From: a virus
Taxonomy: Duplodnaviria; Caudoviricetes
Virus record (IMG/VR): IMGVR_UViG_3300044953_000549
Coordinates: 1-56,079 of that record
Strand: one strand, 5' to 3'
Length of the DNA stretch: 56,079 bases
Within the stretch, counting starts at the first letter, position 1. Each line of letters opens with the position of its first letter. The position numbers and the translations under genes are program-made. The notes below the pieces were generated by a model. It did not search any database, was not told where the DNA came from, and saw nothing but the letters and a program-made list of their open reading frames with translations. This document shows positions 23,994 to 42,898 of this stretch, one piece after another.

Positions 23994-24204
23994 TTAATAT
24001 TTTATATTCCTTACATTTATCATAAAAACAATTACGCAGGACATCACTAAGACTTAAACGACCGCATCCATAACCTTTACGCATTATATCTCTTAATTTA
24101 TAAAGAGATACAACCTCATTCTTTGTAAATCTTGCAGAATATACACTAGTAGTTTCAGCTTTATAATTCTTTGTTGATGTCTTATTTTCTTTCATCACCA
24201 TCAA
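23986..24204 (-). CDS. possible RHH-type DNA-binding protein
   Basis: SVYSARFT...LSLSDVLRNC strand-helix-helix pattern. Confidence 0.4.
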   Translation of the reverse strand: MMVMKENKTSTKNYKAETTSVYSARFTKNEVVSLYKLRDIMRKGYGCGRLSLSDVLRNCFYDKCKEYKILND

Positions 24205-24373
24205 GAATAAATCTTATTCCATCTATACTATTTGATAAATCGGTTATTCTTTCGGCTAAATTCTGAACTATCATCTCAAGCTTATCAACTTTATTTATTA
24301 AACCTTTATTAATTTTACTATACAATAAATTGTTGTCAGCATTAAAATCTGTTGGTAATGGATTAACTTGCAT
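24182..24373 (-). CDS. small coiled-coil hypothetical protein, first gene of the leftward operon
   Basis: 63-aa ORF downstream of a promoter. Confidence 0.5.
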   Translation of the reverse strand: MQVNPLPTDFNADNNLLYSKINKGLINKVDKLEMIVQNLAERITDLSNSIDGIRFILDGDERK

Positions 24374-24392
24374 ATCTATTTAATATATTAAT

Positions 24393-24433
24393 TTGTCTAC
24401 AATACATATATAACAGTATACTAAATTAGTCAA
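24393..24433 (-). promoter_or_regulatory. leftward promoter with TTGT-N2-ACAA operator near +1
   Basis: TTGACT at 24433-24428, TGnTATATA-type -10, TTGTAGACAA at 24402-24393. Confidence 0.55.
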
Positions 24434-24503
24434 CTAATTATACATAAACGACATTATGACAAATTATAAATACAGGAAATCTTTGGATGATTATAAGAAG
24501 TAT

Positions 24504-24643
24504 TAGAAATAAAAAAAAGAACCTTGAATGACTAAGGTTCTTTTTATTTTGATTTATATATGCTTTTTTCTTTTTAAAAAGAAAAAAAACAACAGATTAA
24601 CTTTTATGATAACCACAATATAACATAAAACATACACTGTCAA
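24504..24643 (-). ncRNA. predicted small RNA A (promoter, ~100-nt body, terminator)
   Basis: TTGACA plus TGnTATATT; 48 bp identical (inverted) to 32002-32049; GAACCTT-loop-AAGGTTC-T8 terminator; no ORF. Confidence 0.55.
24514..24545. terminator. bidirectional intrinsic terminator, copy 1
   Basis: AAAAAGAACCTT-GAATGACT-AAGGTTCTTTTT. Confidence 0.8.
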
Positions 24644-25005
24644 TCTCATAAATATAAAAAAAATATTATCTGCAAGAATAACGTTCGTTTTCTAGATAGT
24701 TTAAAAGTTATCTATTTAAAATCTATAAATTATACAATAACTCATTCCAGTAATCTAAATAAGATTGACCTTATTGTTTTACCTTTTCTTGCGGAAACTA
24801 GAAATTCAACTAATAGGATTTCCTTGTAAAAACTAGAAATTCAATTAACACGATAAATATTTTCATAAAAATTTTTTTATTTCTAAAATTTTTATCTACT
24901 GAAAATTTTCTATAAATCTGAATTTTGAAATTTATAGATATTTTTAACTTAGGTTAAGTTTATATCTTAAATATAGTTTAAACGAGTTTTAAATATGTTT
25001 TTAGA

Positions 25006-25053
25006 AGGATATTTATATTTAATAGGGAATCATCCATTAAATATAAATATCCT
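25006..25053. repeat. 18-bp perfect inverted repeat
   Basis: AGGATATTTATATTTAAT-12 nt-ATTAAATATAAATATCCT. Confidence 0.85.
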
Positions 25054-25128
25054 ATTTAAAATTAAAATATGGAAGGTTTTTTACCTAAAAATATACTACG
25101 TATATTTTTAATTCAAAATAAAAAATGT

Positions 25129-25775
25129 GGTCGGTTACTATTTTGATATTTATTAGGTTTTCAATATACCGCAACACCTTTATTTATAAGGCTTGCAAGG
25201 CTAAACACAAAAAAATTCAAAATTTTTGTAACCGACCAAAAGTTATAAAACGACCTAGTAACCGACCTACCCCAACGCCTTATGCAACAAGGTGTTGAAG
25301 GGGTATGGTCGGTTACTGAGCTATTTTTCGCCTATAATATATAAATAAATATATAATATTACCTGTTCTTTTTATTACTATATTTTCTCTCTTTTTATAT
25401 TTTTTTCTTCTTAAATATATAAATATTACTTACCTTACCGACCTTATATATTTGAAAAGTATATATAATAAGGGTTTATAATAGGTCGTTTAGTTGGTCG
25501 TTTACTAGGTCGTCGGTCGTTTCAAAAATAGCAAAAATTCCGGGGTCAAAAACCAATTTTTTATACCCTTGAACACCAGTTGTTCACTGGCTTTGAAGGC
25601 TTTTTCATACACCCCGCAAACCCAGTACCCACCGTTGAGAAAAAAAAACACTAAAAAAGCGTAAATTTTGAATAATTTTAGACATATAAAAAAACTAATA
25701 AGTTTTTTTATATCATATTTCTCATAATTTGTCAAATATCCTCCAATCCTTGTTGTATTAAAGGGTTTGAGGGGA
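25129..25775. repeat. iteron array 1 (GGTCGGTTACT/GGTCG cores), putative replication origin
   Basis: About 10 GGTCG/CGACC cores in both orientations (25129-25522) around an AT-rich core, with interspersed imperfect CCTT...AAGG palindromes. Confidence 0.65.
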
Positions 25776-25960
25776 AAATAATAACCTACTATTTTAATCA
25801 ACTATCTATTTTATAAAAGATAAAATGTTAATATATTACTAAAACAGTTAACTATTATTAATAAAAATTCACCCAACCTTTGCATCATAGATAAAATAAC
25901 ACTTTTAATAGAAATTAAAACTAACTATAACAACTAAACATAACAAAAATATCACACTAA

Positions 25961-26020
25961 TAATATTTTGTAGACAATTTAATATTTATTGTTGACATAG
26001 TAAATTTCAACTAATAAGAT
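25961..26020 (+). promoter_or_regulatory. early promoter 1 with upstream TTGTAGACAA box
   Basis: TTGACA-17-TAAGAT; first 37 bp identical to 33411-33447. Confidence 0.8.
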
Positions 26021-26060
26021 ATAACTACGAACACAAAAACAATAACAAAAAGGTAAAATT

Positions 26061-26648
26061 ATGAACATAAACAGATATAACAAAATTCTAACTACATCAC
26101 CTTCAGGTTTGTATATTGAGCCGTTTTTCAAGTCTTACGATTTATTTCCATTGAATTTAAGTGAAAATTTATACAATGGTAATTTTGAAATAGAGATTCC
26201 GGATTTTATTATAGAAGCGGAACTGTTAGACAGATATTCAGATATATTTAGAAAATCCAAATTTAAAAGTCCGTACTGGCAAGACAGACTGACAGAGAAA
26301 CAGGAGGATGCTTATCATGAAGTTAGAAATGATCTTATAGGAGGAGCTTTAATATTAAACTCTGCTTGGCAAACTTTTAATTATGATGAGGGTATAGCAT
26401 ATCTTTGTGGGTTATTACCTTTTAAATTAACAGGTGATAATATAGATAAAGAGTTGTTGTCTTTATGGGGTTACGGAATGAATTTTAGTTACAAACTAGA
26501 AGCATATCAACTACTTGTAGATTGTTCTTATGATGAGAAAAGTTATTTTGCAAGTCAGGGGATTGAATACTTTGAAAAACACTACGGCTCTTCTTCCCTT
26601 GTTGTATGCGAGATAAGGAAGATGTTAGAGATACAAAAGGCAGCTTAA
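26061..26648 (+). CDS. early hypothetical protein
   Basis: 195 aa, AAGGTAAAATTATG leader. Confidence 0.75.
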   Translation: MNINRYNKILTTSPSGLYIEPFFKSYDLFPLNLSENLYNGNFEIEIPDFIIEAELLDRYSDIFRKSKFKSPYWQDRLTEKQEDAYHEVRNDLIGGALILNSAWQTFNYDEGIAYLCGLLPFKLTGDNIDKELLSLWGYGMNFSYKLEAYQLLVDCSYDEKSYFASQGIEYFEKHYGSSSLVVCEIRKMLEIQKAA

Positions 26649-26702
26649 AATTTAATTTACTTATGTAATGAATAGCAAAAACAACTAAAGAGGTAAAATA
26701 TT

Positions 26703-27071
26703 ATGTATACGCAATTTTCAAATATAACTGATTATATAGGTTGTAGATATGAATTAGAACTTAACAATAAAATCATAGGTAAATTTTATGGTCATCATGA
26801 TTTTAAAAAATTAGTAACATCTTATATTAGGTCTAGGGTAAGTGAATTATTAGAAAAACAAATTTTAGAGAACGATAATAATATTATTTATAGTATAAGA
26901 GTGAGAGATACAGAATTTTTAAATAAAAAAGTAGAACTTAGAGAAAAGGGAACTCCTTACAACATACCTAGTTACGTTAATGCGGGTAAATATGTAAGAA
27001 GTATTAAAAAGTATATGGGTAAAAATATCTTTCAATTAATTGATTTATTATCAATTACAATAAGAGAATAA
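26703..27071 (+). CDS. early hypothetical protein
   Basis: GAGGTAAAATATTATG leader. Confidence 0.7.
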   Translation: MYTQFSNITDYIGCRYELELNNKIIGKFYGHHDFKKLVTSYIRSRVSELLEKQILENDNNIIYSIRVRDTEFLNKKVELREKGTPYNIPSYVNAGKYVRSIKKYMGKNIFQLIDLLSITIRE

Positions 27072-27082
27072 AGGTTAATACC

Positions 27083-27343
27083 ATGAAAACAGAACTTGAT
27101 TTAGGTTACACATTAGAGATTTACGAAAAGGGTAATTACGGAACTGTAAAAAGAAAATATTTTGAAGATATGTTGGATTTAGTAACTTTTACAAATACGA
27201 AAGCAAGAAATTATAATACTGATTATATTATAGATGTTATTAACAAAACTGAATTTAAAACTAGGTATAAGGGTTGTATTCATACTTTTAATAGAAAAGT
27301 TAATGAAATATTAATACAAGGTGATTACAGCATAAACAACTAA
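27083..27343 (+). CDS. early hypothetical protein
   Basis: ORF with AAGGT RBS. Confidence 0.65.
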   Translation: MKTELDLGYTLEIYEKGNYGTVKRKYFEDMLDLVTFTNTKARNYNTDYIIDVINKTEFKTRYKGCIHTFNRKVNEILIQGDYSINN

Positions 27344-27360
27344 TAGAAAGGTAAAATATT

Positions 27361-27606
27361 ATGGAAAATGCTACACAAAAGATAGAAGAATACTTAAAAA
27401 ACTATTTTATAAGTCAACCTGCAATAAGTAAAAATGAAACGGATATACTAGCAAGTAATATAGTAATAATGCTTAAGAAAGATTTATCAAACACTATGTT
27501 TAAAGCTATTTCCAATATAATGAAATCTTGTATAGCTGAGGCTATGCTAGAGGATTATATAGAAAAATATAATAAAAAGGTGAAATATCATGAAAACAAA
27601 CAATAA
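27361..27606 (+). CDS. early hypothetical protein
   Basis: AAGGTAAAATATTATG leader. Confidence 0.65.
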   Translation: MENATQKIEEYLKNYFISQPAISKNETDILASNIVIMLKKDLSNTMFKAISNIMKSCIAEAMLEDYIEKYNKKVKYHENKQ

Positions 27607-27721
27607 CACAACAAATTTCAATACTGCTTTAGTTGAGTTGAATAGAGCATATAAAGATGGTTATATAACAAAAAGTGAATATGAAGAACAAAATGAGATA
27701 CTATTTTTAATATTAAACTAA
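27590..27721 (+). CDS. 43-aa SHOCT-like peptide
   Basis: LVELNRAYKDGYITKSEYEEQ resembles the SHOCT consensus; AAGGTGA RBS. Confidence 0.5.
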   Translation: MKTNNNTTNFNTALVELNRAYKDGYITKSEYEEQNEILFLILN

Positions 27722-27767
27722 TAATAAACACTAGAACAATCAATAATAATTAAATAGGTAAAATATT

Positions 27768-28043
27768 ATGTTTATAGATATATGGGACTTAGAGAATAAG
27801 GCAATTAAGATTAATAAATTCAATAAATATTATTACGAAGTTACGGGTAAAACGGGGTCTAAAATTGAATTTTCATCAACAGATGGTGGTTTTAATCAAG
27901 TATTATATTTTACTAGTATTGATGATTGTTTTAGGTTTTTATTTAGTGGAACATTCACTTACTTGTTTGATAGTGAAGATATAGACTACATACAAATAAA
28001 AGCAGGGAAATCTACAATATTCAAATATGATAATAGAGGTTAA
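27768..28043 (+). CDS. early hypothetical protein
   Basis: TAGGTAAAATATTATG leader. Confidence 0.65.
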   Translation: MFIDIWDLENKAIKINKFNKYYYEVTGKTGSKIEFSSTDGGFNQVLYFTSIDDCFRFLFSGTFTYLFDSEDIDYIQIKAGKSTIFKYDNRG

Positions 28044-28047
28044 TTAT

Positions 28048-28389
28048 ATGTACACAATAAACTTTTTTACATTAGACGAAATGTTTAATGACCATAAAAC
28101 TTTCATAGAAAACATGTTGAATTACGAGTTGAATTTATCATCTCTAGATGATGTAAAATCCTTTTTAGGTAGCGATTTTTATGAAAATGTTTATGAAAAC
28201 ATACTTGGGTTTACAGATGGAATTGTAATAACAGATGAAAATAATGAAGTAATCTATAAGGAAAGGTTTAATACAGATACTATATTTAACATACACACAG
28301 ATGAAGAAGGTAACATAATTTATAATGCAATAGAAGATGGTGAAAGTAATTATTTAATGGAAGACAAATATAAACTTTATTATAGGTAA
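28048..28389 (+). CDS. early hypothetical protein; intact paralog of the split gene at 31858-32980
   Basis: Start MYTINFF after GAGGT; YELNLSSLDDVKSFLGSDFY, GIVITDENNEVIYKE. Confidence 0.7.
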   Translation: MYTINFFTLDEMFNDHKTFIENMLNYELNLSSLDDVKSFLGSDFYENVYENILGFTDGIVITDENNEVIYKERFNTDTIFNIHTDEEGNIIYNAIEDGESNYLMEDKYKLYYR

Positions 28390-28394
28390 ATAAA

Positions 28395-28652
28395 ATGAAT
28401 AAAAACAGTAAAGGTAAGATAGAGATAACAGTTGATAAAACAGGTATGATACATCTAAATATTACAAATATGAGTAATACAAAAGTAGGAGCTATTATAG
28501 CAGCTACACTAGCACAATTAATACATACTGTAGGTACTAACGCTAATAAAACTCTAGGTGAAAGATTGGACTTTTTAATGAATGATATAGTACCTGATAT
28601 AAAGGATAATATACTTAAACTAGATAATGTATTTATGGATGAGCAATTATGA
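28395..28652 (+). CDS. early hypothetical protein
   Basis: ORF with AGGTAAA RBS; weak similarity to 33195..33407. Confidence 0.65.
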   Translation: MNKNSKGKIEITVDKTGMIHLNITNMSNTKVGAIIAATLAQLIHTVGTNANKTLGERLDFLMNDIVPDIKDNILKLDNVFMDEQL

Positions 28653-28954
28653 AGAACTATAGATTATATATTAGTAATAATAAAAGCTATGAGTTTGATA
28701 ATTATGAAGAATTTAAGAGATTAATTCGAATGAAGAGGTACAAACTACTTATAGATGATAAAAGTTATGATTTTAATAATTATGAGGAATTTAGGAGATT
28801 ATTCAATAAAATAACCATAAACATAAGAAAATATAAGGGTTTTGTTTTGCATTTCTATGCTGATAAAAATGAATCAAATATAGAATATAAGAGAATGTGG
28901 GAAATTCTTAATAACAATAAAAACAAAATTTTATTGTATCGGATATTAATATGA
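28649..28954 (+). CDS. hypothetical protein with duplicated N-terminus
   Basis: KNYRLYISNNKSYEFDNYEEFKRL / KRYKLLIDDKSYDFNNYEEFRRL. Confidence 0.65.
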   Translation: MKNYRLYISNNKSYEFDNYEEFKRLIRMKRYKLLIDDKSYDFNNYEEFRRLFNKITINIRKYKGFVLHFYADKNESNIEYKRMWEILNNNKNKILLYRILI

Positions 28955-29223
28955 GGTTAAAGAAAATGAAAAATAAATTATTACTAGTTAGTTGTATTTT
29001 AATTCCTTTTACAGTTCTTGCTAATACTATTAACGATATAAAGGAATTACGAGCTAAGATAAAAGAAACAGCAGAAGAAATTAGAATAGTTTGTGAAGGG
29101 TATACTAGATATCCAAATAGGGTCGGTCAAAATAATATATATTATTGTAATTATCTGGAAAAGGAAGTGAATGAGTATATTAAAAAAGTTCTAGAATTAG
29201 AAAATAATTTAAAGGAAAAATAA
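28951..29223 (+). CDS. small exported protein (signal peptide)
   Basis: MKNKLLLVSCILIPFTVLA followed by a helical domain with two Cys. Confidence 0.6.
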   Translation: MRLKKMKNKLLLVSCILIPFTVLANTINDIKELRAKIKETAEEIRIVCEGYTRYPNRVGQNNIYYCNYLEKEVNEYIKKVLELENNLKEK

Positions 29224-29224
29224 A

Positions 29225-29617
29225 ATGATAAATGACAAACACACTAATAATTCTTATGAAATACGCAGAGAAATAGAAAAATGTTATAACAATGAACAAA
29301 TTGAGAATATATTAAAAAGTTTCTCTAAGTTATGCACAAATATCAAGGAATTAACACCGAGAGATTTTGTAGAATGTGCAATACAGCTTATAAATTCGCT
29401 CCCTACTATGAATGAAGTCATAGCTTTGAAAATAGTAACTTATTTATATTCTATATTAGAGTATTTACCTGAATATGAGCTACATCATATATTAGGTATT
29501 AATAATACATATGGGGAAAGTAAATATAAATTACTTGATTTTCTAGTATATCCTTCAATTAAAAAGAAAATTAAAATGTTTATAGAGTATAGTAAATTAC
29601 AGAAGCAAGATAAATGA
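29225..29617 (+). CDS. early hypothetical protein
   Basis: 130-aa coupled ORF. Confidence 0.6.
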   Translation: MINDKHTNNSYEIRREIEKCYNNEQIENILKSFSKLCTNIKELTPRDFVECAIQLINSLPTMNEVIALKIVTYLYSILEYLPEYELHHILGINNTYGESKYKLLDFLVYPSIKKKIKMFIEYSKLQKQDK

Positions 29618-29835
29618 ATATAGTTGAAATAATGAAAATTGCTGAAAATAAAGATAAATTAAGACGTAAAGAATGGGGAGAGACAGGAAGTAGGGGAGCA
29701 TCAATATTATTTTTATATAAGAATGATGAGAAATACATTCCTATTTACTATCAAGGAGCTCAACCTTGTTTTAGATTAAGTACTTTTTTAATAAAAGAAG
29801 ATTATATAGCTGATGACTGGGAGATAGTAGAATGA
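29614..29835 (+). CDS. DUF2829/Tad2-like protein 1
   Basis: MNIVEIMK...LRRKEW...EDYIADDWEIVE. Confidence 0.7.
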   Translation: MNIVEIMKIAENKDKLRRKEWGETGSRGASILFLYKNDEKYIPIYYQGAQPCFRLSTFLIKEDYIADDWEIVE

Positions 29836-30200
29836 GTAAAGAATTAATAGATGAATTGAAAAATATTATTAGAGCTAATCCAACACTGGATTTAATAGAA
29901 GAAAGAAGAGAAAGAGAAGTTTTGTATATACTATATATAAATGATTCAACACAAACAGCAGTTACAGTAAATACAAGAAATGAATTTAATATCAAAACAT
30001 TAGAGCAAATAATAGATGACGATAAAACTAGATATGAAGCACCTACTAAAGAACAACTATGTAAATTCTATCTTGAATTTATTAAGAACAATAGCGGTCA
30101 TGATTTAGTTTTTGATATTGACGGTTCTATATACAGGAAAATAAAAAAGGTTAGTAAGGAGTTAAACTTTATAATATATGAATATTTAATAAACAGGTAA
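29832..30200 (+). CDS. early hypothetical protein
   Basis: ATGA-coupled ORF. Confidence 0.6.
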   Translation: MSKELIDELKNIIRANPTLDLIEERREREVLYILYINDSTQTAVTVNTRNEFNIKTLEQIIDDDKTRYEAPTKEQLCKFYLEFIKNNSGHDLVFDIDGSIYRKIKKVSKELNFIIYEYLINR

Positions 30201-30204
30201 TAGA

Positions 30205-30480
30205 ATGACAATAAGTAAAGAAAGAGTAGAAGAGTTAAGGTCTATATTTTTAAATAATTTACGTAAAGAATTTGAAGAAGAAATATCTTATCATATAGAC
30301 GAGCTTGGTAAAAATCCTGAAAAATTTTTTAAATCTTATTACAAAACTTTAATGAAGGATTGTATGGAAGAAAGAGGTTTAAGAAGTATTAATGGTTATA
30401 TAGGTATTGAATTTCCATTAAGATTAAATGATTTTACAGAAGAAGAAATTAAATATTTAGAAGAGGATAAAAGAAAATGA
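30205..30480 (+). CDS. early hypothetical protein
   Basis: ORF with CAGGTAA RBS. Confidence 0.6.
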   Translation: MTISKERVEELRSIFLNNLRKEFEEEISYHIDELGKNPEKFFKSYYKTLMKDCMEERGLRSINGYIGIEFPLRLNDFTEEEIKYLEEDKRK

Positions 30481-30653
30481 AAACAAAAATAAAACAAATT
30501 GAAAGAGATTTTTACGAACTAGATAATTTATGTAATTCGTGTAGTTCCCCTCTACCTGTGTTTGATATGTTAACAATTAAAATAGGTAATTCAAGATATG
30601 GTTCGCCTCTTTGTATTAATTGTCTTAATGAAAGAGGTATTAGTTATGAATAA
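30477..30653 (+). CDS. 58-aa CxxC...CxxC zinc-finger-like protein
   Basis: Manual translation: LCNSCSSPL...LCINCLNE; ATGA overlap with the upstream stop. Confidence 0.6.
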   Translation: MKTKIKQIERDFYELDNLCNSCSSPLPVFDMLTIKIGNSRYGSPLCINCLNERGISYE

Positions 30654-30834
30654 AGTAAAATTAAGAAACAAAATGCGAATAGGTGAAATAGAATTTGATG
30701 TTGTTGTACTTGATAATGGAGAAAGAGTGATAACAGAGGAAAGTTTACAAAAATTTATTGATGCAATGAAACTAGGAAACAATAAAGAAGTTAAAAAATT
30801 AATGAAGGATATTAGGATACATTATGTTGATTAA
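30646..30834 (+). CDS. small protein resembling the N-terminal part of P63C-domain proteins
   Basis: IGEIEFDVVVLDNGERVITEESL; GAGGT RBS favours a start at 30646. Confidence 0.5.
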   Translation: MNKVKLRNKMRIGEIEFDVVVLDNGERVITEESLQKFIDAMKLGNNKEVKKLMKDIRIHYVD

Positions 30835-30902
30835 ATACGCAATAATGTTATTAATTGTATTAACATTCGTAATAACAGCTACTTTTATTTTAAAATTTAT
30901 TT

Positions 30903-31145
30903 TTGATAAAAATAATTAAAACTATGGAATCACAATTTTGGACTACTAAAAATAGTAGAAAATTAAAAATCACTAATATCCGTGATGATCATTTAATAAA
31001 TATACATAAAATGCTATTGCGTAAAGACTTACATATTTACGAAATTAATTATGAAATGAGACGTAGAGGTTTTCTTCCAATTTCACCTGTAATTGAATTA
31101 TGGGAAATAGAACGTTTTCAAAATAGTTATGATGATCAATTATAA
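30903..31145 (+). CDS. small phage protein
   Basis: WTTKN...I..I.DDHLINI.KML motif. Confidence 0.6.
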   Translation: MIKIIKTMESQFWTTKNSRKLKITNIRDDHLINIHKMLLRKDLHIYEINYEMRRRGFLPISPVIELWEIERFQNSYDDQL

Positions 31146-31154
31146 AACAGGTAA

Positions 31155-31529
31155 GTGAAAATGAACATAATCGAAGCATTAAATGAAGTTAGGGATGGTA
31201 ATACAGTAACCCGCATAAACTGGTTTGATAATATTGTCGTTATGCTTTCTTCAGAAACTGGAAAAATAGTTGTACATAATACATGTACCAATGAGGACTT
31301 GGACTATCTTTTTACCGCAGACGATGTACAAGCAGATAATTGGGTAATAAAGCACTATAGACGACCATTGACTTTTGTTGACGCATTTAAAAAAGTTAAA
31401 AATGGTAAGAAAGTAAGAAGAAAAGTTTGGAATGATGATTGTTATATAACAGGTGATACTAGATTAAACAGTTTCTTCTTAGCAGAGGAAGATTTACTGG
31501 CTAATGATTGGGAGGTTATAGAAGCATGA
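31155..31529 (+). CDS. tandem two-domain DUF2829/Tad2-like protein
   Basis: MNIIEAL..V.DG..V.R.NW...DVQADNW plus LTFVDAF..VKNGKKVRRKVW...DLLANDWEV. Confidence 0.8.
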   Translation: MKMNIIEALNEVRDGNTVTRINWFDNIVVMLSSETGKIVVHNTCTNEDLDYLFTADDVQADNWVIKHYRRPLTFVDAFKKVKNGKKVRRKVWNDDCYITGDTRLNSFFLAEEDLLANDWEVIEA

Positions 31530-31753
31530 ATATAATAGAAGCAATTAATAGCTTGAAAGAAAATCCTGAATTGGCAATGAAATCAAAATATTTTACAATA
31601 ATATATGATGCTGATAAGAATGTTTTTTATCAACTTGAATATTACGAAAGAGGTGATGGGTTATTTGATGAAGAATTTTCTAGAATTGATATAGAAGAAA
31701 ATATCTTTTGTTTAAAAGATATTTTAAACAATGATTGGGAGGTGGTGGAATGA
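31526..31753 (+). CDS. DUF2829/Tad2-like protein 3
   Basis: MNIIEAINSLK...DILNNDWEVVE. Confidence 0.6.
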   Translation: MNIIEAINSLKENPELAMKSKYFTIIYDADKNVFYQLEYYERGDGLFDEEFSRIDIEENIFCLKDILNNDWEVVE

Positions 31754-31848
31754 GTGATATAGAAATTATAATGTTAATACATACAATAATTTTAATTGTT
31801 GGGATAATAGGTCTTGGACTTAGTTTTTGGTATAATATGAATAATTAG
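31750..31848 (+). CDS. 32-aa single-TM peptide
   Basis: MSDIEIIMLIHTIILIVGIIGLGLSFWYNMNN, ATGA-coupled. Confidence 0.45.
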   Translation: MSDIEIIMLIHTIILIVGIIGLGLSFWYNMNN

Positions 31849-31986
31849 CAGGACAAAATGTATACAATAAACTTTTTTAATTTAGCGGAAATAGAACGTA
31901 AACAATATAAACATCCTAGCTGTAATCTTTGCAATACATTTTACGAAGAAAAACGATTATATTTTGAATTTAAATTAACAAACCTG

Positions 31987-32130
31987 TTGATTTTCTTATG
32001 TTTTTATGTTATATTGTGGTTATCATAAAAGTTAATCTGTTGTTTTTTTCTTGGTATAAAATTACTAAGAAAAAATTTTTATAAGTATAAAAAGAACCTT
32101 GAATGACTAAGGTTCTTTTTTTTATTTCTA
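31987..32130 (+). ncRNA. predicted small RNA B (sister of A)
   Basis: TTGATT-17-TATATT (TGn extended); 48-bp identity with A; terminator at 32089-32123. Confidence 0.55.
32089..32123. terminator. intrinsic terminator, copy 2
   Basis: AAAAAGAACCTT-GAATGACT-AAGGTTCTTTTTTTT. Confidence 0.8.
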
Positions 32131-32355
32131 TTTCTTCTATAAATTACCGATAAAAATTCTTAATAAATTTCCCTTACCTAAAACCAATATTAAATTTCTT
32201 AAACCTTAATAATTTTGAAAAATTTTATGAAATTTCTATTTTTAATTTAGACATCAAAGATACAAGCAAAAATTATCATCAAAACTATCATCAAAATTAT
32301 TGAATATTTCATCATACTAAAAATATAAAATTTTACTCTGATTTTAGACACTCCC

Positions 32356-32692
32356 AAAAAAGTTGGAAGACGCTCAACACCAGTTAAATAAAGGGGTTCA
32401 ATGGATATATAAAAAACCCGTCTTTCAACAAGAAAACCAAAATTGGAAGACGCTCAACACAAGGATATATAAAGGTTTTAAGGGGAATCTTCCAATCTTC
32501 CAACTTTTTTAGAACAGTGTCTATATATATTAGAGAAAATAAAAATATCTATTTTCTTATTTTTCAATTATTATAATTATTTTTCTATATACACATACAT
32601 TAAAAAAAGTTGGAAGATTGGAAGATTATACCTTGAATACAAGTTGAATAAAGGTTTTCAGCATCTTCCAACTTTTTTACCTAGTTGGAAGA
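32356..32692. repeat. iteron array 2 (TTGGAAGA), putative replication origin
   Basis: 8 exact TTGGAAGA/TCTTCCAA copies; perfect 25-bp inverted repeat 32486-32510 / 32603-32627 around an AT-rich core. Confidence 0.7.
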
Positions 32693-32984
32693 CACACCTA
32701 TATTGAAGATGTAAAATCATTTTTACATTCTAATTTTTATAAACAAATTGTACACCACATTGATAATGAGCCTTATATAAATGAAGAAAGAATATTTGGG
32801 ATTATTATAACTTCACATAATGAAATTATTTATAAAAAGTTACTTAGAAATTGGTTTTGTGATGATAAATATTTAGCAATACATAGTAATATTGATAATA
32901 AAACCATTTATAAAACGGTTAATGATAAAGAAATTATTGAAGATTTGGTTTTAGTTTGTAATAAGGGATTGTTAGAATAATAAA

Positions 32985-33194
32985 ATGAACATTAAACAAC
33001 TTATAGAACAAAATAAAGTTCAATATGATTTAACAAATAAAGATAAAACAAAAATTTTAAATATCCGTGATGGATTATATAAAGTATTTGATGATAAAAC
33101 TAATACTTGGGTTAAATATAATTTAGATGATTTAGAAAAATTAAATTTTGAACTTTTTATACAAATTTTATTTGATGATTGGGAGGTAATATAA
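32985..33194 (+). CDS. divergent DUF2829/Tad2-like protein 4
   Basis: MNIKQLI...ILFDDWEVI. Confidence 0.45.
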   Translation: MNIKQLIEQNKVQYDLTNKDKTKILNIRDGLYKVFDDKTNTWVKYNLDDLEKLNFELFIQILFDDWEVI

Positions 33195-33407
33195 ATGAAA
33201 AGATTAGAGATACTTATAGACGAGAAAAATGATAGATTTAAGATACTTAACCACGACAATCTGAACTATTCCGATGTTACAAGATATCTTGCGGATTCTA
33301 TGGTACATATTATAAACGATAATTATATGGGTGATAAAATTCAATTTCTTGAAGATTTACTAGAACCAATGAAACAGGATTTAATAAACTTGAATAAAGA
33401 AAAATAA
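33195..33407 (+). CDS. early hypothetical protein
   Basis: GGAGGT RBS. Confidence 0.65.
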   Translation: MKRLEILIDEKNDRFKILNHDNLNYSDVTRYLADSMVHIINDNYMGDKIQFLEDLLEPMKQDLINLNKEK

Positions 33408-33410
33408 ATA

Positions 33411-33470
33411 TAATATTTTGTAGACAATTTAATATTTATTGTTGACAGATATAAAAACAACTACTAATAT
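33411..33470 (+). promoter_or_regulatory. early promoter 2 (duplicate of promoter 1)
   Basis: TTGTAGACAA box, TTGACA-17-TAATAT. Confidence 0.8.
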
Positions 33471-33509
33471 ATAAATACGAACACAAAAATAATTAAAAAG
33501 GTAAACATC

Positions 33510-33821
33510 ATGAAAATTAAAGACGACATACTACTAGAATATATTAAACCTCATATATCAGAGAAAGTATACAATTTGTTATATGATAATATTAATGAAC
33601 CAAAAGAATATAAGGTTGCTTTTAAAGAAGCAGAAAAAAAAACATCAGAAGATTACAGTATAATTTTTCATTCTCTTACGGAAAGTTTTTATTTTCTAAA
33701 AAGCAATCTGATTATCAATTTATTGAAAATGTCTAATATATTTGATTCCATAGAAGTTTCATTAATAACAGTTCAAGGTGATAAACTATTGTTTAAGTTC
33801 AATGTAAAAGATTTATATTAA
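33510..33821 (+). CDS. early hypothetical protein
   Basis: Shared GAACACAAAAA...AAGGTAAA leader. Confidence 0.65.
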   Translation: MKIKDDILLEYIKPHISEKVYNLLYDNINEPKEYKVAFKEAEKKTSEDYSIIFHSLTESFYFLKSNLIINLLKMSNIFDSIEVSLITVQGDKLLFKFNVKDLY

Positions 33822-33825
33822 AATT

Positions 33826-34308
33826 ATGAATAACAATCAGGAAGAAAAATTAAAAATACAAATAGATGATTTTATCTTAAATATGAAATTCAAGGATTTA
33901 TTGCATACATATTTTAAGGATACGCACCCATTTTTAAATAGAATAAGTATAAAAGAAATAGATTCAGGTTTTGTTTTTAATGAAGATGAAAGTTTATTGG
34001 CTAGAATGGAAACATATCAATATCATTGTTTTAATGAAGATAGTAATAAGGATTTGTTAATAATTTCAGACACAATTAAAAATATTTTTAATAATCTAGA
34101 AGAAAAAGCAAAATATATTTTTAATCCTTTGTATTCAGAAATGAATATCATCTTTATAAGAGAAGAAATAAACTATCAATGTTTTATAAATCAAATTACA
34201 AAAAGAAGATGTATTCTAGTAATGGGTAGATTTGGGTTTTACAATATATTAACAAATAATGATTGTAAAACAGTTAAAACAGAGGACGGACAAGAAGTGC
34301 CATTATAA
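33826..34308 (+). CDS. early hypothetical protein
   Basis: 160-aa ORF. Confidence 0.6.
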   Translation: MNNNQEEKLKIQIDDFILNMKFKDLLHTYFKDTHPFLNRISIKEIDSGFVFNEDESLLARMETYQYHCFNEDSNKDLLIISDTIKNIFNNLEEKAKYIFNPLYSEMNIIFIREEINYQCFINQITKRRCILVMGRFGFYNILTNNDCKTVKTEDGQEVPL

Positions 34309-34324
34309 AAATAGTGTTAATATT

Positions 34325-34717
34325 ATGCCTAAGAAAAATATAAAAATAGATGATATACATGTTCATATAGGTAACAAAATAAAAATATACCGATATGAGA
34401 TAGGGTTATCAAGAAGTGAATTAGCCCCTAAAATTAATATCAGTCAACAGCAATTAACTAAGTATGAAGCAGGAGTAAATAAAATATCTGTCGGTAGATT
34501 GCTTCTACTTGCTAATGTATTAAATAAAAATATAACAGATTTTATATATACTGATGAATGGGAAATTAATACGGAAAATCTATCACGTATTGATATGGAG
34601 ATATTATGTAATTTAAGTAGTATTAAAAATCCTGAACTAAAGGAAAATATTAATACATTAATAAAAACAACAATTAAATCATATGTTGATACAACAGAAA
34701 TTAAAAAGTTTGGATAG
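34325..34717 (+). CDS. XRE-family HTH regulator of alphaproteobacterial type
   Basis: HIGNKIK.YR...GLSRSELA..INISQQQLTKYEAGVNKISVGRL; likely start ATG 34325. Confidence 0.88.
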   Translation: MPKKNIKIDDIHVHIGNKIKIYRYEIGLSRSELAPKINISQQQLTKYEAGVNKISVGRLLLLANVLNKNITDFIYTDEWEINTENLSRIDMEILCNLSSIKNPELKENINTLIKTTIKSYVDTTEIKKFG

Positions 34718-34737
34718 TAAAGAAATAGAGGTTTTAA

Positions 34738-34965
34738 ATGAGTATAATAATTATTATTGCTATTATAACAATAGGTCAGATAGCAATAGCTATAATGATA
34801 AGCAGTAATATTGATGATTGTGATAGATATAGACGTAACGAGCAATACGGTATTAGTATTAATGTTATAGATAATATAAAAAGAAAATCCGTTATTATAA
34901 GTAAACTGAGTAAATTAATAATATTATTACTTGGTATTGTGTGGGGATTTATAATAATTAAATAA
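34738..34965 (+). CDS. small two-TM membrane protein
   Basis: Hydrophobic N- and C-termini. Confidence 0.55.
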   Translation: MSIIIIIAIITIGQIAIAIMISSNIDDCDRYRRNEQYGISINVIDNIKRKSVIISKLSKLIILLLGIVWGFIIIK

Positions 34966-35067
34966 TTATGGTAATTAAACTGATTGTAATAGCTTTATTA
35001 CTTGTTTTTATAGTTGGGATTGGAACATATATAATGAAGCTGATATTTGATAAAGAGGACTAAATAT

Positions 35068-36081
35068 ATGAAATTTACAAAAATAAAAAACTTTACAGAA
35101 ATTAATGAAGTAAGAATTAAAACATCTACTTCAAAAGGTGAGGTAACTAATAAACTTGTTATCTATATTGGTAAGGAGATAGCAGATAAATATTTTAGTG
35201 AAAGCAACTATGTAAATGTTAGAGTAGTTAAAGATAAATTAGGTAAAAATGATATTCATTTATTTAAAGCTATTGATGGTTCTGATTTAAGAAAATACAA
35301 GTTCGCTGTAACAGGTAACGGTACATGCCAGACGAGAAAACTATTAATCAGTATGCCTGTTGATGTAGATATGAACAATTATATAATTAATAAATCTGTT
35401 ATATACTCTAATATTGATAATACTCTGATACTTCATATAGATAGTAAAAGTAAAATATCTAAGAAAACCAATAAAAGTAAATTAATTGTAAACGGTATAG
35501 ATCAGGCAACCTTAGATAAGCAGTTTCAAAATAAATTCAATGAGTTGTATGATGAAGAATATAATAAATATGAAGCATTAGGACAACCTATAACTAGAGC
35601 TGTTAGAAAAGCAAGAATGGGAACTGAAAATAATATTGATTCTATAACCTCACATAAACAAAAAAGAGATAAATTAATTGAGTTGTATGGAATAAGAGAG
35701 GATCTCGATTCAAACAACCAATATCATTATGAAGAATTAAAAAAGTTAGTGTGGGAAACAATACTTCGTTTAGATTTTCTGGATAAAAAAGTTGATTTTC
35801 TTTCTCCTATTTGTAAAGCTATGGATAGGTTAGAAGATAAAATAGACGTTATTACATCTAAAAATACTACTAATGAAACTAATTCAAAAGAATTAAATAA
35901 TCTAGGTTATGATAAATTAACACAAGATTTAAGAGATCGTCAGCTTTATACAGAGAAAATACTATTTGAATTAATAGAACATAAAAATACAAATTTAAAA
36001 AGATTATGTGAAATTGAGAATAAAGTTAAAAACATTAAAGAATATAAAAGAAGTCTGTTTGATAGGATATTCGGGGATTAA
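35068..36081 (+). CDS. hypothetical protein (beta N-domain plus coiled coil)
   Basis: Long ORF; GAGGA RBS favours ATG 35068. Confidence 0.7.
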   Translation: MKFTKIKNFTEINEVRIKTSTSKGEVTNKLVIYIGKEIADKYFSESNYVNVRVVKDKLGKNDIHLFKAIDGSDLRKYKFAVTGNGTCQTRKLLISMPVDVDMNNYIINKSVIYSNIDNTLILHIDSKSKISKKTNKSKLIVNGIDQATLDKQFQNKFNELYDEEYNKYEALGQPITRAVRKARMGTENNIDSITSHKQKRDKLIELYGIREDLDSNNQYHYEELKKLVWETILRLDFLDKKVDFLSPICKAMDRLEDKIDVITSKNTTNETNSKELNNLGYDKLTQDLRDRQLYTEKILFELIEHKNTNLKRLCEIENKVKNIKEYKRSLFDRIFGD

Positions 36082-36083
36082 TT

Positions 36084-36317
36084 ATGGACAATAAAATACA
36101 TAGTATTCCATATGAAATAAAATCAATGAAGAAACTGGCGGAAAATATTGCGTATGTTAATAAAAGTAAGGGTGCTTTTGTAATTATTCTTGAGAAGGAT
36201 GATACAGTACGTATGGGTTGTAGCGGTCTTACTTTCCATGAACAGAAAGAAGTTTTAACTGTTGCAATATATAATGTCTATGATAAGGATAAACAAATTA
36301 AAATAGAGTATGAATAA
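36084..36317 (+). CDS. hypothetical protein
   Basis: Coupled ORF. Confidence 0.6.
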   Translation: MDNKIHSIPYEIKSMKKLAENIAYVNKSKGAFVIILEKDDTVRMGCSGLTFHEQKEVLTVAIYNVYDKDKQIKIEYE

Positions 36318-36639
36318 CACAATAAACGATTTATTATTTGAAATAGATTTTTGTTTAGATAGTATTTTCCCTATAGAAGAAAGAGTTACTAAAAAACAAA
36401 GTATAGAAAGAATATTATTAACAATAAGTCAATTAAGAGGACAATTATTATCTATGAGAGATGATATAGTTAGAGATAATGATATTAAAGGACGTAAAGA
36501 ATTGTACCATCCTCTTGAAGCATTACCTTTAGAATTAATGCGAAATTTATACAACGATATGCCCGATAATTTAGCTGAAAAACATTTTGATTCTACAACA
36601 TATAATAAATGTAGTAAAAGAAATAGAGGTGTTATATGA
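36310..36639 (+). CDS. hypothetical protein
   Basis: Coupled ORF. Confidence 0.6.
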   Translation: MNNTINDLLFEIDFCLDSIFPIEERVTKKQSIERILLTISQLRGQLLSMRDDIVRDNDIKGRKELYHPLEALPLELMRNLYNDMPDNLAEKHFDSTTYNKCSKRNRGVI

Positions 36640-36833
36640 CAATAACACGATCAATAGCTGTTCATATAAAGAAAGGTAGCAGTCTTTTTGATTTTATTAG
36701 TGAAGTAGAAAGCAAAACAACATTAAGTAGTAAGGAGATACTAGAGTTTCTTATAAACTGGGCGTACGAAGATTATTTTTATAATGATGTTGATCGTTTG
36801 CTGGAATTAATGGATAGTAGGAGGTTAAAATAA
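36636..36833 (+). CDS. small protein, possibly RHH-like
   Basis: RSIAVHI strand followed by two helices. Confidence 0.45.
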   Translation: MTITRSIAVHIKKGSSLFDFISEVESKTTLSSKEILEFLINWAYEDYFYNDVDRLLELMDSRRLK

Positions 36834-37950: not shown

Positions 37951-37998
37951 ACAGAACTGAACAATCGAATTTAATTAATTTTTAAAAAGGTAAATAAT

Positions 37999-38244: not shown

Positions 38245-38299
38245 TAAACACTAAACAATTAAAAATAATTAAAAACAATTAAATTAAAGGTAAAATAGA

Positions 38300-42863: not shown

Positions 42864-42898
42864 AATTTGTAGACAAATTAGTGTTATTTCTATATACT
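42864..42898 (+). promoter_or_regulatory. promoter of small RNA C, overlapped by the AATTTGTAGACAAATT palindrome
   Basis: TAGACA-17-TATACT. Confidence 0.65.

Follow-up and report, generated by a model that had tools for sequence, protein, structure and literature searches.

Candidate paralogous promoter-terminator cassettes inverted at two operon borders of a lake-water phage genome, with one terminator loop flipped

Kissing antisense control RNAs such as ColE1 RNAI/RNAII and R1 CopA/CopT are cis-antisense to a primer or rep leader within the control region of a replicon, and minute inversions at hairpins occur in chloroplast DNA. The small RNAs OmrA and OmrB have almost identical 5' and 3' ends and distinct central regions, as stated in the part of PMC2588501 drawn on here. 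According to excerpts of PMC2839356 and PMC4122927, promoter and stem-loop (PeSL) cassettes mediate indels and replacements, and excerpts of PMC8794818 document inversions of 7-8-nt loops by template switching. At the T-phi terminator of phage T7, abortive transcripts act in trans by pairing with the 5' half of the terminator, causing antitermination (PMC2952870, in part).

The window analysed here is a complete 56,079-bp phage genome from lake water and represents a whole virus record. Its late operon (terS, terL and structural genes) lies on the minus strand up to 24373, and small early ORFs are found on the plus strand from 26061, early operon 1 spanning 26061-32028. The phage encodes its own primase-helicase-PolA fusion as well as a Gp2.5-like annealing protein and exonucleases identified with PHROGs. 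It looks virulent, as no integrase was found in the genome and no repressor module was identified apart from one HTH ORF.

Using sequence inspection, a promoter/terminator scan and folding, we delineated two units, A (24504..24643, minus strand) and B (31987..32130, plus strand), which are inverted, 7.4 kb apart, and constitute as a whole inverted repeats of ~145 nt at 82% identity. The perfect 48-bp inverted repeat reported in the preliminary description was borne out (48/48 identities). This block 1 (24583..24630, minus, in A; 32002..32049, plus, in B) covers positions ~-20 to +28 of the predicted units and harbours the extended -10-like motif TGTTATATT (24625 to 24617 on the minus strand, 32007-32015 on the plus strand), with a second -10-like hexamer, TATCAT, just 3' of TATATT. 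No reading frame is common to A and B across block 1, the frames differing between the copies. The terminator block is composed of 14 nt, an 8-nt loop and 22 nt, and its 44 nt are identical between the units apart from the flip of the loop. As had been proposed, the loop alone is flipped and its flanks are kept: the hairpins form a 32-nt direct repeat and the tail AAGGTTCTTTTTTTTATTTCTA a 22-nt inverted repeat between units, both at 100%. The centres, initially called unrelated, are indeed diverged by several indels, yet each forms a hairpin, and the two middle hairpins are predicted to share the basal stem U7CUU/AAGA6. Middle hairpin A (24561..24591, minus; UUUUUUUUCUUUUUAAAAAGAAAAAA) includes, as DNA, a perfect 24-nt palindrome (24564-24587), and in middle hairpin B (32044..32075, plus) the basal stem of A carries a different apex, homologous to that of a unit in the relative L021. 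At the sequence level, an identical 5' block and terminator around a diverged centre is the conservation pattern of sibling small RNAs.

The -35-like hexamer is TTGACA in unit A (24643 to 24638) and TTGATT in unit B (31987-31992), followed by spacers of 15 and 17 nt, respectively, and then by TGTTATATT; for unit A, the scan listed TTGACA-17-TATTGT and a hairpin. Predicted starts at ~24610 and ~32022 and U-tracts at 24518 to 24511 and 32116-32123 delimit predicted RNAs of ~100 nt each, with folding energies of -21 kcal/mol (z -3.8) for A and -29 kcal/mol (z -5.5) for B. As sigma-70-like matches in the AT-rich genome do not exceed the number expected from shuffles (78 versus 83.9), the promoters rest on the conserved TGTTATATT and on the presence of a -35-like hexamer in each copy. 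The ORF-less transcript of ~100 nt suggested earlier is plausible as a promoter-to-terminator unit, although promoter use is a prediction.

Both units end in a predicted strong intrinsic terminator, tA (24514..24545; core 24519-24540, loop 24526-24533) and tB (32089..32120; core 32094-32115, with a loop at 32101-32108 that is inverted with respect to its flanks), whose hairpins fold with z -4.2 to -4.4. They represent two of just four intergenic co-oriented terminator-like sites, among eight sites genome-wide. On the plus strand, tA has an A8 run 5' and T5ATTTT 3' of it and so resembles a terminator whichever way it is read. There are exactly two copies of the 22-mer GAACCTTGAATGACTAAGGTTC, at 24519 and 32094, each on the plus strand (none expected from 100 shuffles). 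In transcript sense the loop reads AGUCAUUC in A and GAAUGACU in B within identical flanks. Logan contigs of run X1, possibly the source sample, cover 24000-24545 and 32091-33439 without any difference, and run X3, from a different sample and study, covers 24243-24547, again with none. The orientation of the A loop relative to its unique flank was thus reproduced independently, that of B in X1 only, and the flip is not the assembly artefact that had been envisaged. Unit 1 of L021 has a B-like spacer and compensatory stem changes (GAACCTG/CGGGTTC), and its loop, AGTCATTA in transcript sense, differs at 1/8 positions from the loop described here and has the orientation of A. Since this B-type unit has its loop in A's orientation, B is the flipped copy. 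The flip corresponds to one mutational event of a kind described in PMC8794818 (in the part used), and complementary loops can therefore arise without selection; it is probably a neutral by-product.

Unit A is located just 5' of the late operon (first ATG, 24373) and is directed toward it, so that tA separates everything upstream from terS, terL and the structural genes; no upstream ORF was found that unit A would terminate. Between tA and the first late ORF lies a conserved promoter-like block (24380..24450, minus; TTGACT-17-TATATG followed by TTGTAGACAAATTAATAT), and upstream of the unit are two 35-nt direct repeats with a AACTAGAAATTCAA core (24784..24853), which are kept in L006. A hairpin with a T-run was found at this slot in 8/8 relatives' loci that reach it (L006, L008-L011 and L020-L022), upstream of the late-promoter block and with at least three unrelated bodies. 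Compared across these loci, the tA slot is a hot spot at which relatives carry different putative cassettes. The flanks are about 80-83% identical to those of L006 over blastn-matched blocks, versus ~65% for the cassette (~24486-24637; hand count on the alignment), and a contig of run X2 skips from 24486 to 24638. In the unit of L006, the closest relative, 11 nt are missing between TTGACA and the -10 region, and no good -10 is found at an appropriate distance. Three relatives (L010, L021 and L022) have an L008-type unit whose promoter-like block is made up of the 3' end of a small ORF; in these, the hairpin may be no more than the terminator of that operon.

As for unit B, whose terminator closes early operon 1, it evidently arrived within an insertion of ~715 bp (31987..32701, plus) that broke a small early gene, a paralogue of the ORF at 28027-28389. 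The insertion comprises unit B, a 210-bp spacer and an array of TTGGAAGA sites containing a palindrome with 61-nt arms. The N-terminal fragment of the split gene (MYTINFF...; 31858..31986, plus) continues as an open frame to 32028, inside block 1, and the C-terminal fragment (IEDVKSFL...LLE*; 32702..32980, plus) is homologous to the ORF at 28027-28389. Homologues of the split gene are contiguous in L020 and L008, and in G004 the stretch from the orf31508 homologue to the second early promoter has no such cassette or gap. The array of the insertion (array B, 32356..32700) has eight TTGGAAGA sites arranged symmetrically around an AT-rich centre (8/10 sites fall within 32363-32692; palindrome arms 32486-32546 and 32567-32627). 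Array A (25129..25520), unrelated to it, consists of GGTCGKTTA sites on both strands, 6/7 of them within 25129-25504. An iteron array had been noted beside each unit; the arrays are real, but they are not placed equivalently: array A is upstream of A's promoter and array B downstream of B's terminator, and with arrays on opposite sides the units do not have one common layout with them.

Because of the flip, predicted RNA A contains 32 nt that are the perfect complement of RNA B sequence and, equally, of the 3' end of any early-operon-1 transcript terminated at tB. Loop complementarity holds (8/8 positions), but it is not restricted to the loop, as it spans the whole palindromic hairpin (32/32). 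The predicted interaction is strong, with cofold ddG values of -21.6 kcal/mol for A:B, -11.6 for A:A and -2.8 for B:B, and duplex energies of -46.5, -27.0 and -27.8 kcal/mol, respectively. Among the phage's own mRNAs no target emerged: of its 83 translation-start regions, the one forming the best duplex reaches -17.3 kcal/mol, a value that 30/40 shuffled seeds also attain. As 33-37 nt of block 1 are missing from L021, conservation of the 'seed' does not extend beyond this genome. The proposed resemblance to a leader plus ATG stands in part, since 12 nt and the AUG flank match a small-ORF leader in L021 and L010, but that ORF is absent here, and neither unit is antisense to any gene leader of this phage. 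There is so far no sign that the phage uses the A/B complementarity; going by the predicted pairing, a functional kissing pair is possible.

There is about an even chance that the units are paralogous, gene-less promoter-terminator cassettes of ~150 nt, inverted at two operon borders. That such cassettes are shuffled by recombination and insulate operons, probably yielding two sibling RNAs of ~100 nt, seems to us evenly balanced. The extended -10 promoter of each cassette would fire, and the resulting RNAs of ~100 nt would be identical in the first ~30 nt and in the terminator but differ in the middle hairpin, making them two sibling small RNAs with one common seed. The cassettes would be spread and exchanged by homologous or short-homology recombination, with T4-type PeSL as a model, through the phage's own Gp2.5-like annealing protein and exonuclease. 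The flipped loop would result from a one-step hairpin-loop inversion in copy B, either through template switching inside the hairpin or through gene conversion when the two palindromic hairpins align in direct register.

It is unlikely, if by no means negligible, that the units are simply ordinary bidirectional operon terminators producing no independent short RNA, with block 1 and the promoter-like motifs as scars that recent recombination (inverted duplication or gene conversion) left behind. The chance-level frequency of promoter-like matches, the coding 3' end that makes up the slot-A 'promoter' of some relatives and the lack of a properly spaced -10 in L006 are consistent with this; tB lies exactly where early operon 1 needs a terminator, and the annealing protein and exonucleases could homogenise repeats. 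However, a neutral scar would not be expected to show 48 perfect nt beside a centre in which at least 3-4 indels or substitutions have accumulated, the estimated chance that four random events over 137 nt all fall in the 45-nt centre being ~0.01. Moreover, a -35-like hexamer is retained in both copies amid otherwise diverged sequence, and unit A has no upstream ORF to terminate. We consider it rather improbable that the units are antitermination cassettes of the lambda PR'-tR' type, in which a constitutive promoter immediately precedes a terminator, A fronting the late operon and B the second early/middle block. The identical 48-bp block (~-20 to +28) would then be the shared recognition and pause site of a phage antiterminator allowing RNA polymerase to read through tA and tB. 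Unit A does point into the late operon, promoter-like sequence, short body and terminator occur at slot A in 8/8 relatives' loci, the identical block is the promoter-proximal region with TATCAT downstream of TATATT, and short PR'-tR' transcripts can double as sRNAs, as reported for StxS in part of PMC7547250. Nevertheless, Q, N and other antiterminator families have no match among 83 ORFs (PHROGs) or 50 ORFs (Pfam), a weak null as the majority of early ORFs have no match of any kind. The near-consensus promoter-like block between tA and the first late gene is present in all relatives, so the late operon need not depend on read-through, and unit B is a recent insertion and not a conserved control point.

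Selection of the flip for pairing between RNAs A and B is distinctly improbable in our view. Starting from the 8-nt loops, RNA A would pair in this way with RNA B and also with mRNAs of early operon 1 at their 3' ends, and the outcome could be mutual sequestration, RNase III cleavage or interference in trans with the nascent terminator and hence read-through. The extensive A:B complementarity, the 1/8 difference of the L021 loop and the precedent of T7 RNAs that pair with a terminator 5' half (PMC2952870, in part) agree with such a role. Conversely, it involves a single event in a single genome, inversion of the loop of a perfectly palindromic hairpin is known as a neutral type of mutation (PMC8794818, in part), opposite-strand transcripts of one palindromic hairpin are always complementary by construction, and full pairing needs the opening of stable 12-13-bp stems. 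The earlier proposal of replication or incompatibility control, here taken to mean that RNAs like those of ColE1 or R1 control copy number, replication or incompatibility at two iteron origins, is in line with the complementary loops and with two non-coding arrays with AT-rich palindromic centres 0.2-0.6 kb from the units. It is unsupported and very improbable: no Rep/initiator, partition or plasmid-type gene and no recombinase or invertase gene was found among 83 ORFs (PHROGs) or 50 ORFs (Pfam), neither unit is antisense to a primer or rep leader, the arrays are unlike in sequence and on opposite sides relative to transcription, and promoter B is cut off from array B by a strong terminator. 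In G004 (32 kb), the one relative whose sequence is long enough for this comparison, there is a single unit instead of two, and the early operon has no second array; the twin arrangement is seen in this genome only. Equally improbable is an invertible 7.4-kb segment, with the 145-nt inverted repeats that bound 24631-32001 as crossover sites flipping early operon 1 and its promoter. With a bidirectional terminator at each end, the segment would be insulated in either orientation, and contigs of runs X2 and X4 join 24589 to 32043 on opposite strands (depths 4.4 and 2.84, sides 76 and 46). These joints, however, lie at repeats exceeding the word length of the contig builder, at depth <5, in runs containing just 0.40 and 0.18 of the words, and may be chimeric paths or other strains; X1, at depth 10-18, has no such joint, and the PHROGs and Pfam comparisons identified no recombinase or invertase gene.

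Returning to cassettes that insulate operons and yield sibling RNAs, the units resemble the E. coli Hfq-type OmrA/OmrB pair (PMC2588501, in part) as two paralogous ORF-less ~100-nt units with near-identical 5' seed and 3' terminator, a distinct centre and a hairpin and U-tract end. They have no Rfam or sequence relationship to OmrA/OmrB, and differ in being phage-borne, predicted from sequence, 7.4 kb apart and inverted rather than adjacent, with a seed that is not conserved in relatives. Complementary loops of 6-8 nt could nucleate RNA-RNA pairing as in ColE1 and R1, but here there is neither an identified rep gene nor leader overlap, and complementarity is in trans between two terminators. 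T7 T-phi likewise involves RNA from elsewhere on the genome, complementary to the upstream half of a terminator before downstream genes, but uses 4-6-nt G-rich abortive products and T7 RNA polymerase (PMC2952870, in part), whereas the candidate effector here is a predicted structured 32-nt hairpin. Like lambda and Stx-phage PR'-tR' (6S-like RNA, StxS; PMC7547250, in part), unit A has a predicted promoter followed immediately by an intrinsic terminator, directly upstream of the late operon and pointing into it, an arrangement whose terminated by-product can act as an sRNA; it differs by the lack of an identified Q homologue, the extra promoter-like block before the late genes, a second copy in the early region and the apparently virulent nature of the phage. 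As in template-switch inversion, a loop of 7-8 nt is replaced by its exact reverse complement with stem and flanks unchanged (PMC8794818, in part), but ectopic conversion between two palindromic copies is an alternative here, and the hairpin has a same-genome paralogue transcribed from the other strand, so that inversion creates intermolecular complementarity. The units differ from T4-type PeSL in having the promoter ahead of the hairpin with no gene behind it in the same unit, and in being present as just two copies that are inverted and not direct; moreover, the phage is not T4-type, and the candidate recombination products are ambiguous contig joints (X2, X4). Nevertheless, as in the PeSL described in parts of PMC2839356 and PMC4122927, the units are small composites that combine a sigma-70-like promoter with a terminator hairpin, are repeated in the genome with no dedicated recombinase, and are located at borders of variable ORFan blocks, where they coincide with insertion and replacement breakpoints between close relatives.

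The window, a whole IMG/VR virus record of 56,079 bp whose ends overlap by 22 bp, is found mainly in lake-water metagenomes. According to ORF predictions and PHROGs searches, its - strand carries from 24373 to 1 a block of small ORFs, terS-like and terL genes, head and tail genes and a 1,340-aa primase-helicase-PolA fusion. The latter is a single ORF (1039-5061, -) with PHROG matches to primase-like, helicase and family-A DNA polymerase regions along its length. A non-coding stretch of 1.7 kb (24373-26060) separates this block from approximately 35 small early ORFs on the + strand (26061-38917), which are interrupted by non-coding DNA at 32029-32700. PHROGs searches also revealed a Gp2.5-like annealing protein, exonucleases and a resolvase-like nuclease. 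Searches of 83 ORFs with PHROGs and 50 with Pfam gave no match to an integrase, invertase, Rep/initiator or Q/N-type antiterminator; as most early ORFs are ORFans, the missing Q-family match is weak evidence. One early ORF (31155-31529, +) harbours a Tad2-like (Thoeris anti-defence 2) domain (PF11195, E 1.9e-14, 54 bits for a cut-off of 25), and a second ORF (29614-29835, +) has a sub-threshold match to the same family. Another ORF (51789-52448, -) codes for an outer-membrane beta-barrel domain (Pfam OMP_b-brl, E 6.7e-11), which together with SD-like sites and TTGACA/TATAAT-like promoters suggests a Gram-negative host, probably outside Bacteroidota.

Unit A (24504-24643, -) and unit B (31987-32130, +) share a perfect 48-bp inverted repeat (24583-24630 / 32002-32049, hereafter block 1), as the preliminary description had claimed. 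In the transcript sense, each unit comprises the identical 48-nt block 1, a centre of 36 nt in A and 39 nt in B that differs by several indels, and a terminator block of 14 nt, an 8-nt loop and 22 nt, all identical except for the loop. The B loop is the exact reverse complement of the A loop between conserved flanks, again as claimed. The stem is palindromic, as are its A/T extensions, so that at the DNA level the flip turns the whole 32-nt hairpin into a direct repeat; GAACCTTGAATGACTAAGGTTC occurs twice, both times on the + strand, where shuffles give 0 expected. For the same reason RNAs A and B, the predicted transcripts, are complementary beyond the loop: the complementarity first noticed at eight of eight loop positions holds, but the pairing is wider and extends to 32 of 32 hairpin positions. 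The spacers, initially considered unrelated, differ at their apex but both fold into a hairpin with a common basal stem (U7CUU/AAGA6). Both units are devoid of ORFs and have the same 5' and 3' ends around a differing centre. Block 1 was also considered as coding sequence, a possibility that we rejected since the open frames crossing it differ between A and B.

The flipped loop is not an artefact of assembly. In sequencing run X1, contigs span hairpin A together with the unique flank on its left (24000-24545) and hairpin B together with its right flank (32091-33439), and a contig of run X3 likewise spans hairpin A and the unique left flank (24243-24547), all with 0 differences. These contigs were built apart from the IMG assembly; X1 possibly represents the source sample, and another sample and study gave X3.

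Termination is the role that can be assigned most firmly to the units. The two hairpins, tA and tB, have 12-13 pairs (3 of them G-C), 6-8-nt loops, T8 tails and z scores of -4.2 to -4.4, as found in intrinsic terminators. The stem is kept by compensatory change in the single homologue available for this comparison, that of the related locus L021 (GAACCTG/CGGGTTC vs GAACCTT/AAGGTTC), with one pair altered on both sides and one on a single side. A genome-wide scan identified eight terminator-like sites, four of which lie between genes in the orientation of the upstream gene: one at 12.69 kb, after the major head gene, and the others at 24.5, 32.1 and 42.98 kb. Thus positioned, tB closes early operon 1 (26061-32028) and tA shields the late operon.

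We collected relatives through TerL, with seven loci from IMG/VR and six confirmed among 18 candidate stretches from JGI metagenomes; L019 equals L008 over the compared part. Eight loci (L006, L008, L009, L010, L011, L020, L021 and L022) extend into the DNA preceding the late operon, and we left out L005 and L007, which stop short of it, and L023 and L024, which are too short or too distant. A late-promoter-like block (TATGTATAAT..GTTGACTAATT...) is common to all eight, and a second conserved block (CTTCTAAAAACAT...), farther upstream, is present in seven, the L011 contig starting inside the region. Between the conserved blocks, a TTGACA-containing sequence is followed by a hairpin and a T-run in every locus. 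The TTGACA block of L010, L021 and L022 forms the 3' end of a small ORF, and the hairpin in these loci thereby also closes a two-gene mini-operon. L006 (TerL 92%) has a diverged unit A homologue with a different loop, ~65% identical in block 1 by hand count, and its flanks are ~80-83% identical over blastn-matched blocks. Body and hairpin are unrelated to unit A in L008, L009, L010, L011, L020 and L022. A contig of run X2 jumps from 24486 to 24638, with limits matching those of the L006 replacement (24486-24637). Judging from these differing bodies at a common slot, the site of unit A is a hot spot of cassette exchange, whose constant feature is a terminator before the late operon.

Two further elements were noted in this part of the genome. 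At 24972-25061, the block GTTTAAACGAGTTTTAAATATGTTTTTAGAAG is kept in seven of the eight relatives' loci (the L011 contig begins too late) and adjoins in the window a palindrome with 26-nt arms (24998-25023 / 25036-25061); it is a candidate conserved cis site, e.g. an origin or a packaging signal, in the late/early divergent region. The 18-nt motif TTGTAGACAAWTTAATAT has three exact copies and six with at most two mismatches, vs 0.07 expected, including those at 24385-24402 (-), 25968-25985 (+) and 33418-33435 (+) and a weaker one at 42867-42884 (+). It lies directly upstream of the -35 at both early promoters, which themselves form a 115-nt repeat (25935-26049 / 33385-33499, 78%), and directly downstream of the -10 at the late promoter. 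It looks like the site of a single regulator with two modes of use. The motif is found in L006 and absent from L008-type relatives.

Unit B lies within a split gene. The start of ORF 31858-32028 resembles that of ORF 28027-28389 (MYTINFF...) and the frame 32702-32980 continues the same family (DVKSFL...IIYK...), with the fragments on either side of 31987-32701. The homologues are unbroken in L020 (57% identity) and L008 (41%). G004 (32 kb) is the record behind L008; in it, the homologue of the ORF at 31508-31753 is followed by a few small ORFs and the second early promoter, and the early operon is devoid of a terminator-plus-array cassette. These three observations indicate that unit B is part of a lineage-specific insertion, of which it represents the first 144 bp of ~715 bp; the remainder is a 210-bp spacer, then eight TTGGAAGA sites around an AT-rich palindrome. 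The insertion begins exactly at the -35-like TTGATT and is flanked by CAAACCT and CACACCT. Used as a query for related loci, the C-terminal part of the split gene yielded no relatives. Directly preceding the split gene and the B cassette is a hydrophobic mini-ORF of 32 codons (31751-31849, +; MSDIEIIMLIHTIILIVGIIGLGLSFWYNMNN), which is kept in G004. GC-richer elements that loosely resemble one another, with the pattern ..CAACAC(C/A)..N..AAGG(G/T)TT..AGGGG, occur at both non-coding arrays (25570-25600, 25285-25310 and 25755-25780; 32370-32400, 32450-32490 and 32630-32665), for example TAAAGGTTTTAAGGGGAA at 32470-32487 vs TAAAGGGTTTGAGGGGAA at 25759-25776.

Blastn ('distant') of 24300-26100 and 31800-33500 yielded 0 matches among 50,697 phage records, and Rfam gave none in the window at the gathering threshold; at E<=1, a search of the two unit regions gave only mir-266 (25.4 bits vs a gathering score of 80). 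Exact-pattern scans of IMG/VR returned no match for a 20-mer of block 1 or for a degenerate hairpin pattern, and >110 unspecific matches for TTGGAAGATTGGAAGA, none of which resembles the B cassette or the A region over more than ~30 nt. In GTDB genomes, the 22-nt hairpin had no match, and a 19-mer of the seed (the 5' RNA region from block 1) had two, in a Chitinophagaceae MAG and a Mucilaginibacter MAG, in unrelated contexts; by a rough estimate, this is about the number due to chance. Four unit homologues, very unequal, were available in all (alignment A3). We found no description of twin phage RNAs with reverse-complementary terminator loops in a literature search that covered few subscription journals.

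Our preferred reading, in which we have about even confidence, is that the units are promoter-terminator cassettes that insulate operons and probably yield two sibling RNAs. Both units harbour TGTTATATT and a -35-like hexamer. A putative promoter of their own is favoured by the location of TGTTATATT in the perfectly conserved block 1, by the retention of the hexamer in each copy amid diverged DNA, by the lack of a reading frame common to A and B in block 1 and by the same-ends, distinct-centre pattern, as described for OmrA and OmrB, which have almost identical ends and a distinct central region (PMC2588501). However, promoter-like matches in the window DNA are at chance level overall, L006 has no -10 at proper spacing, and the seed is not kept in relatives: it is diverged in the L006 homologue, 33-37 nt are missing in L021, and L008-type units are unrelated to it. 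The first two points would suit units that are terminators only, i.e. hairpins without a short RNA of their own, which we consider unlikely. As for targets, the best pairing of the 30-nt 5' region with the phage's 83 translation-start regions (-17.3 kcal/mol) is matched by 30 of 40 shuffles. The same region is predicted to pair with the leader of a small ORF, including its AUG, at the corresponding locus in L021 and L010; the antisense match to a leader plus ATG proposed earlier has a counterpart in these relatives, but the ORF is absent from the window. The L021 pairing (-15.8 kcal/mol) is equalled by 1 of 300 shuffles, and shuffles do as well in 6 of 300 cases for L010 and 146 of 300 for L022; since the target was picked after the motif had been seen, leader pairing should be taken as no more than a lead. 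An inverted relic of an L021/L010-type leader could account for it, as could an RNA directed against co-infecting relatives. If transcribed, the units would provide an uncultivated freshwater phage with a pair of sibling small RNAs, few of which are known in virulent phages.

Other functions can be envisaged for the hairpins. In unit A, a putative promoter leads directly into a terminator, the two preceding the late operon and pointing into it, and the short transcript of lambda PR'-tR' is its closest match by position (PMC7547250). A lambda-type Q antitermination unit nevertheless appears rather improbable; a Q-family gene was not found in the 83 ORFs (PHROGs) or 50 ORFs (Pfam). Slightly less probable still is a functional antisense pair of RNAs A and B: the predicted cofold ddG is -21.6 kcal/mol for A:B, vs -11.6 for A:A and -2.8 for B:B (-8.6 for the loops alone), and in this model thermodynamics trivially favours A:B pairing. 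One could further imagine, at a distinctly lower probability, that accumulating early-transcript 3' ends act as an RNA timer antiterminating tA in trans. Transcripts of early operon 1 and RNA B would end in a hairpin that is fully complementary, in loop and stem, to tA as it emerges, and with rising early RNA, loop-loop kissing would lead to invasion of tA during its synthesis. With tA formation blocked, polymerase from promoter A would enter the packaging/structural operon; reciprocally, tB would be opened by RNA A. If true, this would represent protein-independent trans-acting antitermination arising from one 8-nt inversion; T7 offers a distant precedent for trans-acting antitermination (PMC2952870).

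Control of replication by copy-number or incompatibility RNAs, the function first proposed, seems very improbable. The complementary loops (8/8) are indeed reminiscent of replicon antisense or kissing RNAs of the ColE1 RNAI and R1 CopA types, and an array lies near each unit. However, the arrays are unrelated in sequence (TTGGAAGA vs GGTCGKTTA) and oppositely placed, array A (25129-25520) being upstream of promoter A and array B (32356-32700) downstream of terminator B. Moreover, no rep/initiator gene was found (83 ORFs with PHROGs, 50 with Pfam), the opposite strand of the units has no gene leader, and G004, the sole relative long enough, has one unit. We regard as equally improbable a Gin/Hin/Cin-type switch inverting the 7.4-kb segment. 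Contigs do connect the flank of A, on one strand, to that of B on the other (24589<->32043, 24464<->32197, 24503<->32150), in addition to the joints 24513<->24545 (opposite strands) and 32088->24514 (which goes back 7575), and one X4 contig links the flanks in direct register, at the hairpin. Yet all these opposite-strand and backward joints are limited to runs X2 and X4 (0.40 and 0.18 of sampled words, respectively), at depths of 2.6-4.4, and coincide with or adjoin repeats that reach the length of the contig word (at least 31 nt); inversion, excision or loop polymorphism is therefore not inferred from them. In X1 (depth 10-18), A-B joints are absent and contigs merely end at the repeats. No invertase or recombinase gene was found in the 83 ORFs (PHROGs) or 50 ORFs (Pfam). 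X2 coverage is absent over 32242-33192. A site-specific recombination site (7-bp arms and an 8-bp asymmetric core, in direct orientation) was likewise dropped, no recombinase having been found.

With regard to the origin of the flip, L021 has two tandem units ahead of its late operon, separated by a 43-nt promoter-block duplication. The first has a spacer homologous to that of B (TCTTGGTAGATAAAAC...), lacks the above-mentioned part of block 1 and ends with the terminator AAAAGAACCTGAGTCATTACGGGTTCTTTTTTAATTTCTAA. Its loop AGTCATTA matches the A loop AGTCATTC at seven of eight positions in the transcript sense, and this A-like orientation indicates that A has the older orientation and that B is an inverted copy. 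The near-perfect duplication flanks the B-type unit (L021:1361-1572), a modular duplication like that of the window, but in direct orientation. Exact inversion of hairpin loops, including those of 7-8 nt, is a known product of replication template switching (PMC8794818). The flip would have occurred through a template switch or through conversion between palindromic hairpins in direct register, with an identical product either way.

Taken as promoter-terminator cassettes, the units provide a clean natural example, outside the T4 group, of such cassettes moving, replacing each other and splitting genes. They also illustrate that a one-step hairpin inversion can yield perfect trans-complementarity of two RNAs, as raw material for antisense regulation. 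From its sequence, the locus appears to be a well-documented curiosity: its kinds of elements are known, and its unusual trait, so far functionless, is trans-complementarity that stems from a one-step inversion. By the architecture of the units, the closest known match is that of OmrA/B-like sibling sRNAs, and template-switch loop inversions are the closest match for the flip (PMC8794818). By genomic behaviour, it is the PeSL cassettes of T4-type phages (PMC2839356, PMC4122927). As in the latter, a composite of a sigma-70-like promoter and a terminator stem-loop is present, here in two copies, and indel or replacement breakpoints between close relatives coincide with the cassettes (24486-24637; edge of the unit B insertion). 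However, PeSLs of T4-type phages are ordered as stem-loop, promoter and SD/ATG of the flanked ORFan, whereas in the window the putative promoter precedes the hairpin, the unit harbours no gene, and the genome is 56 kb long with a primase-helicase-PolA fusion.
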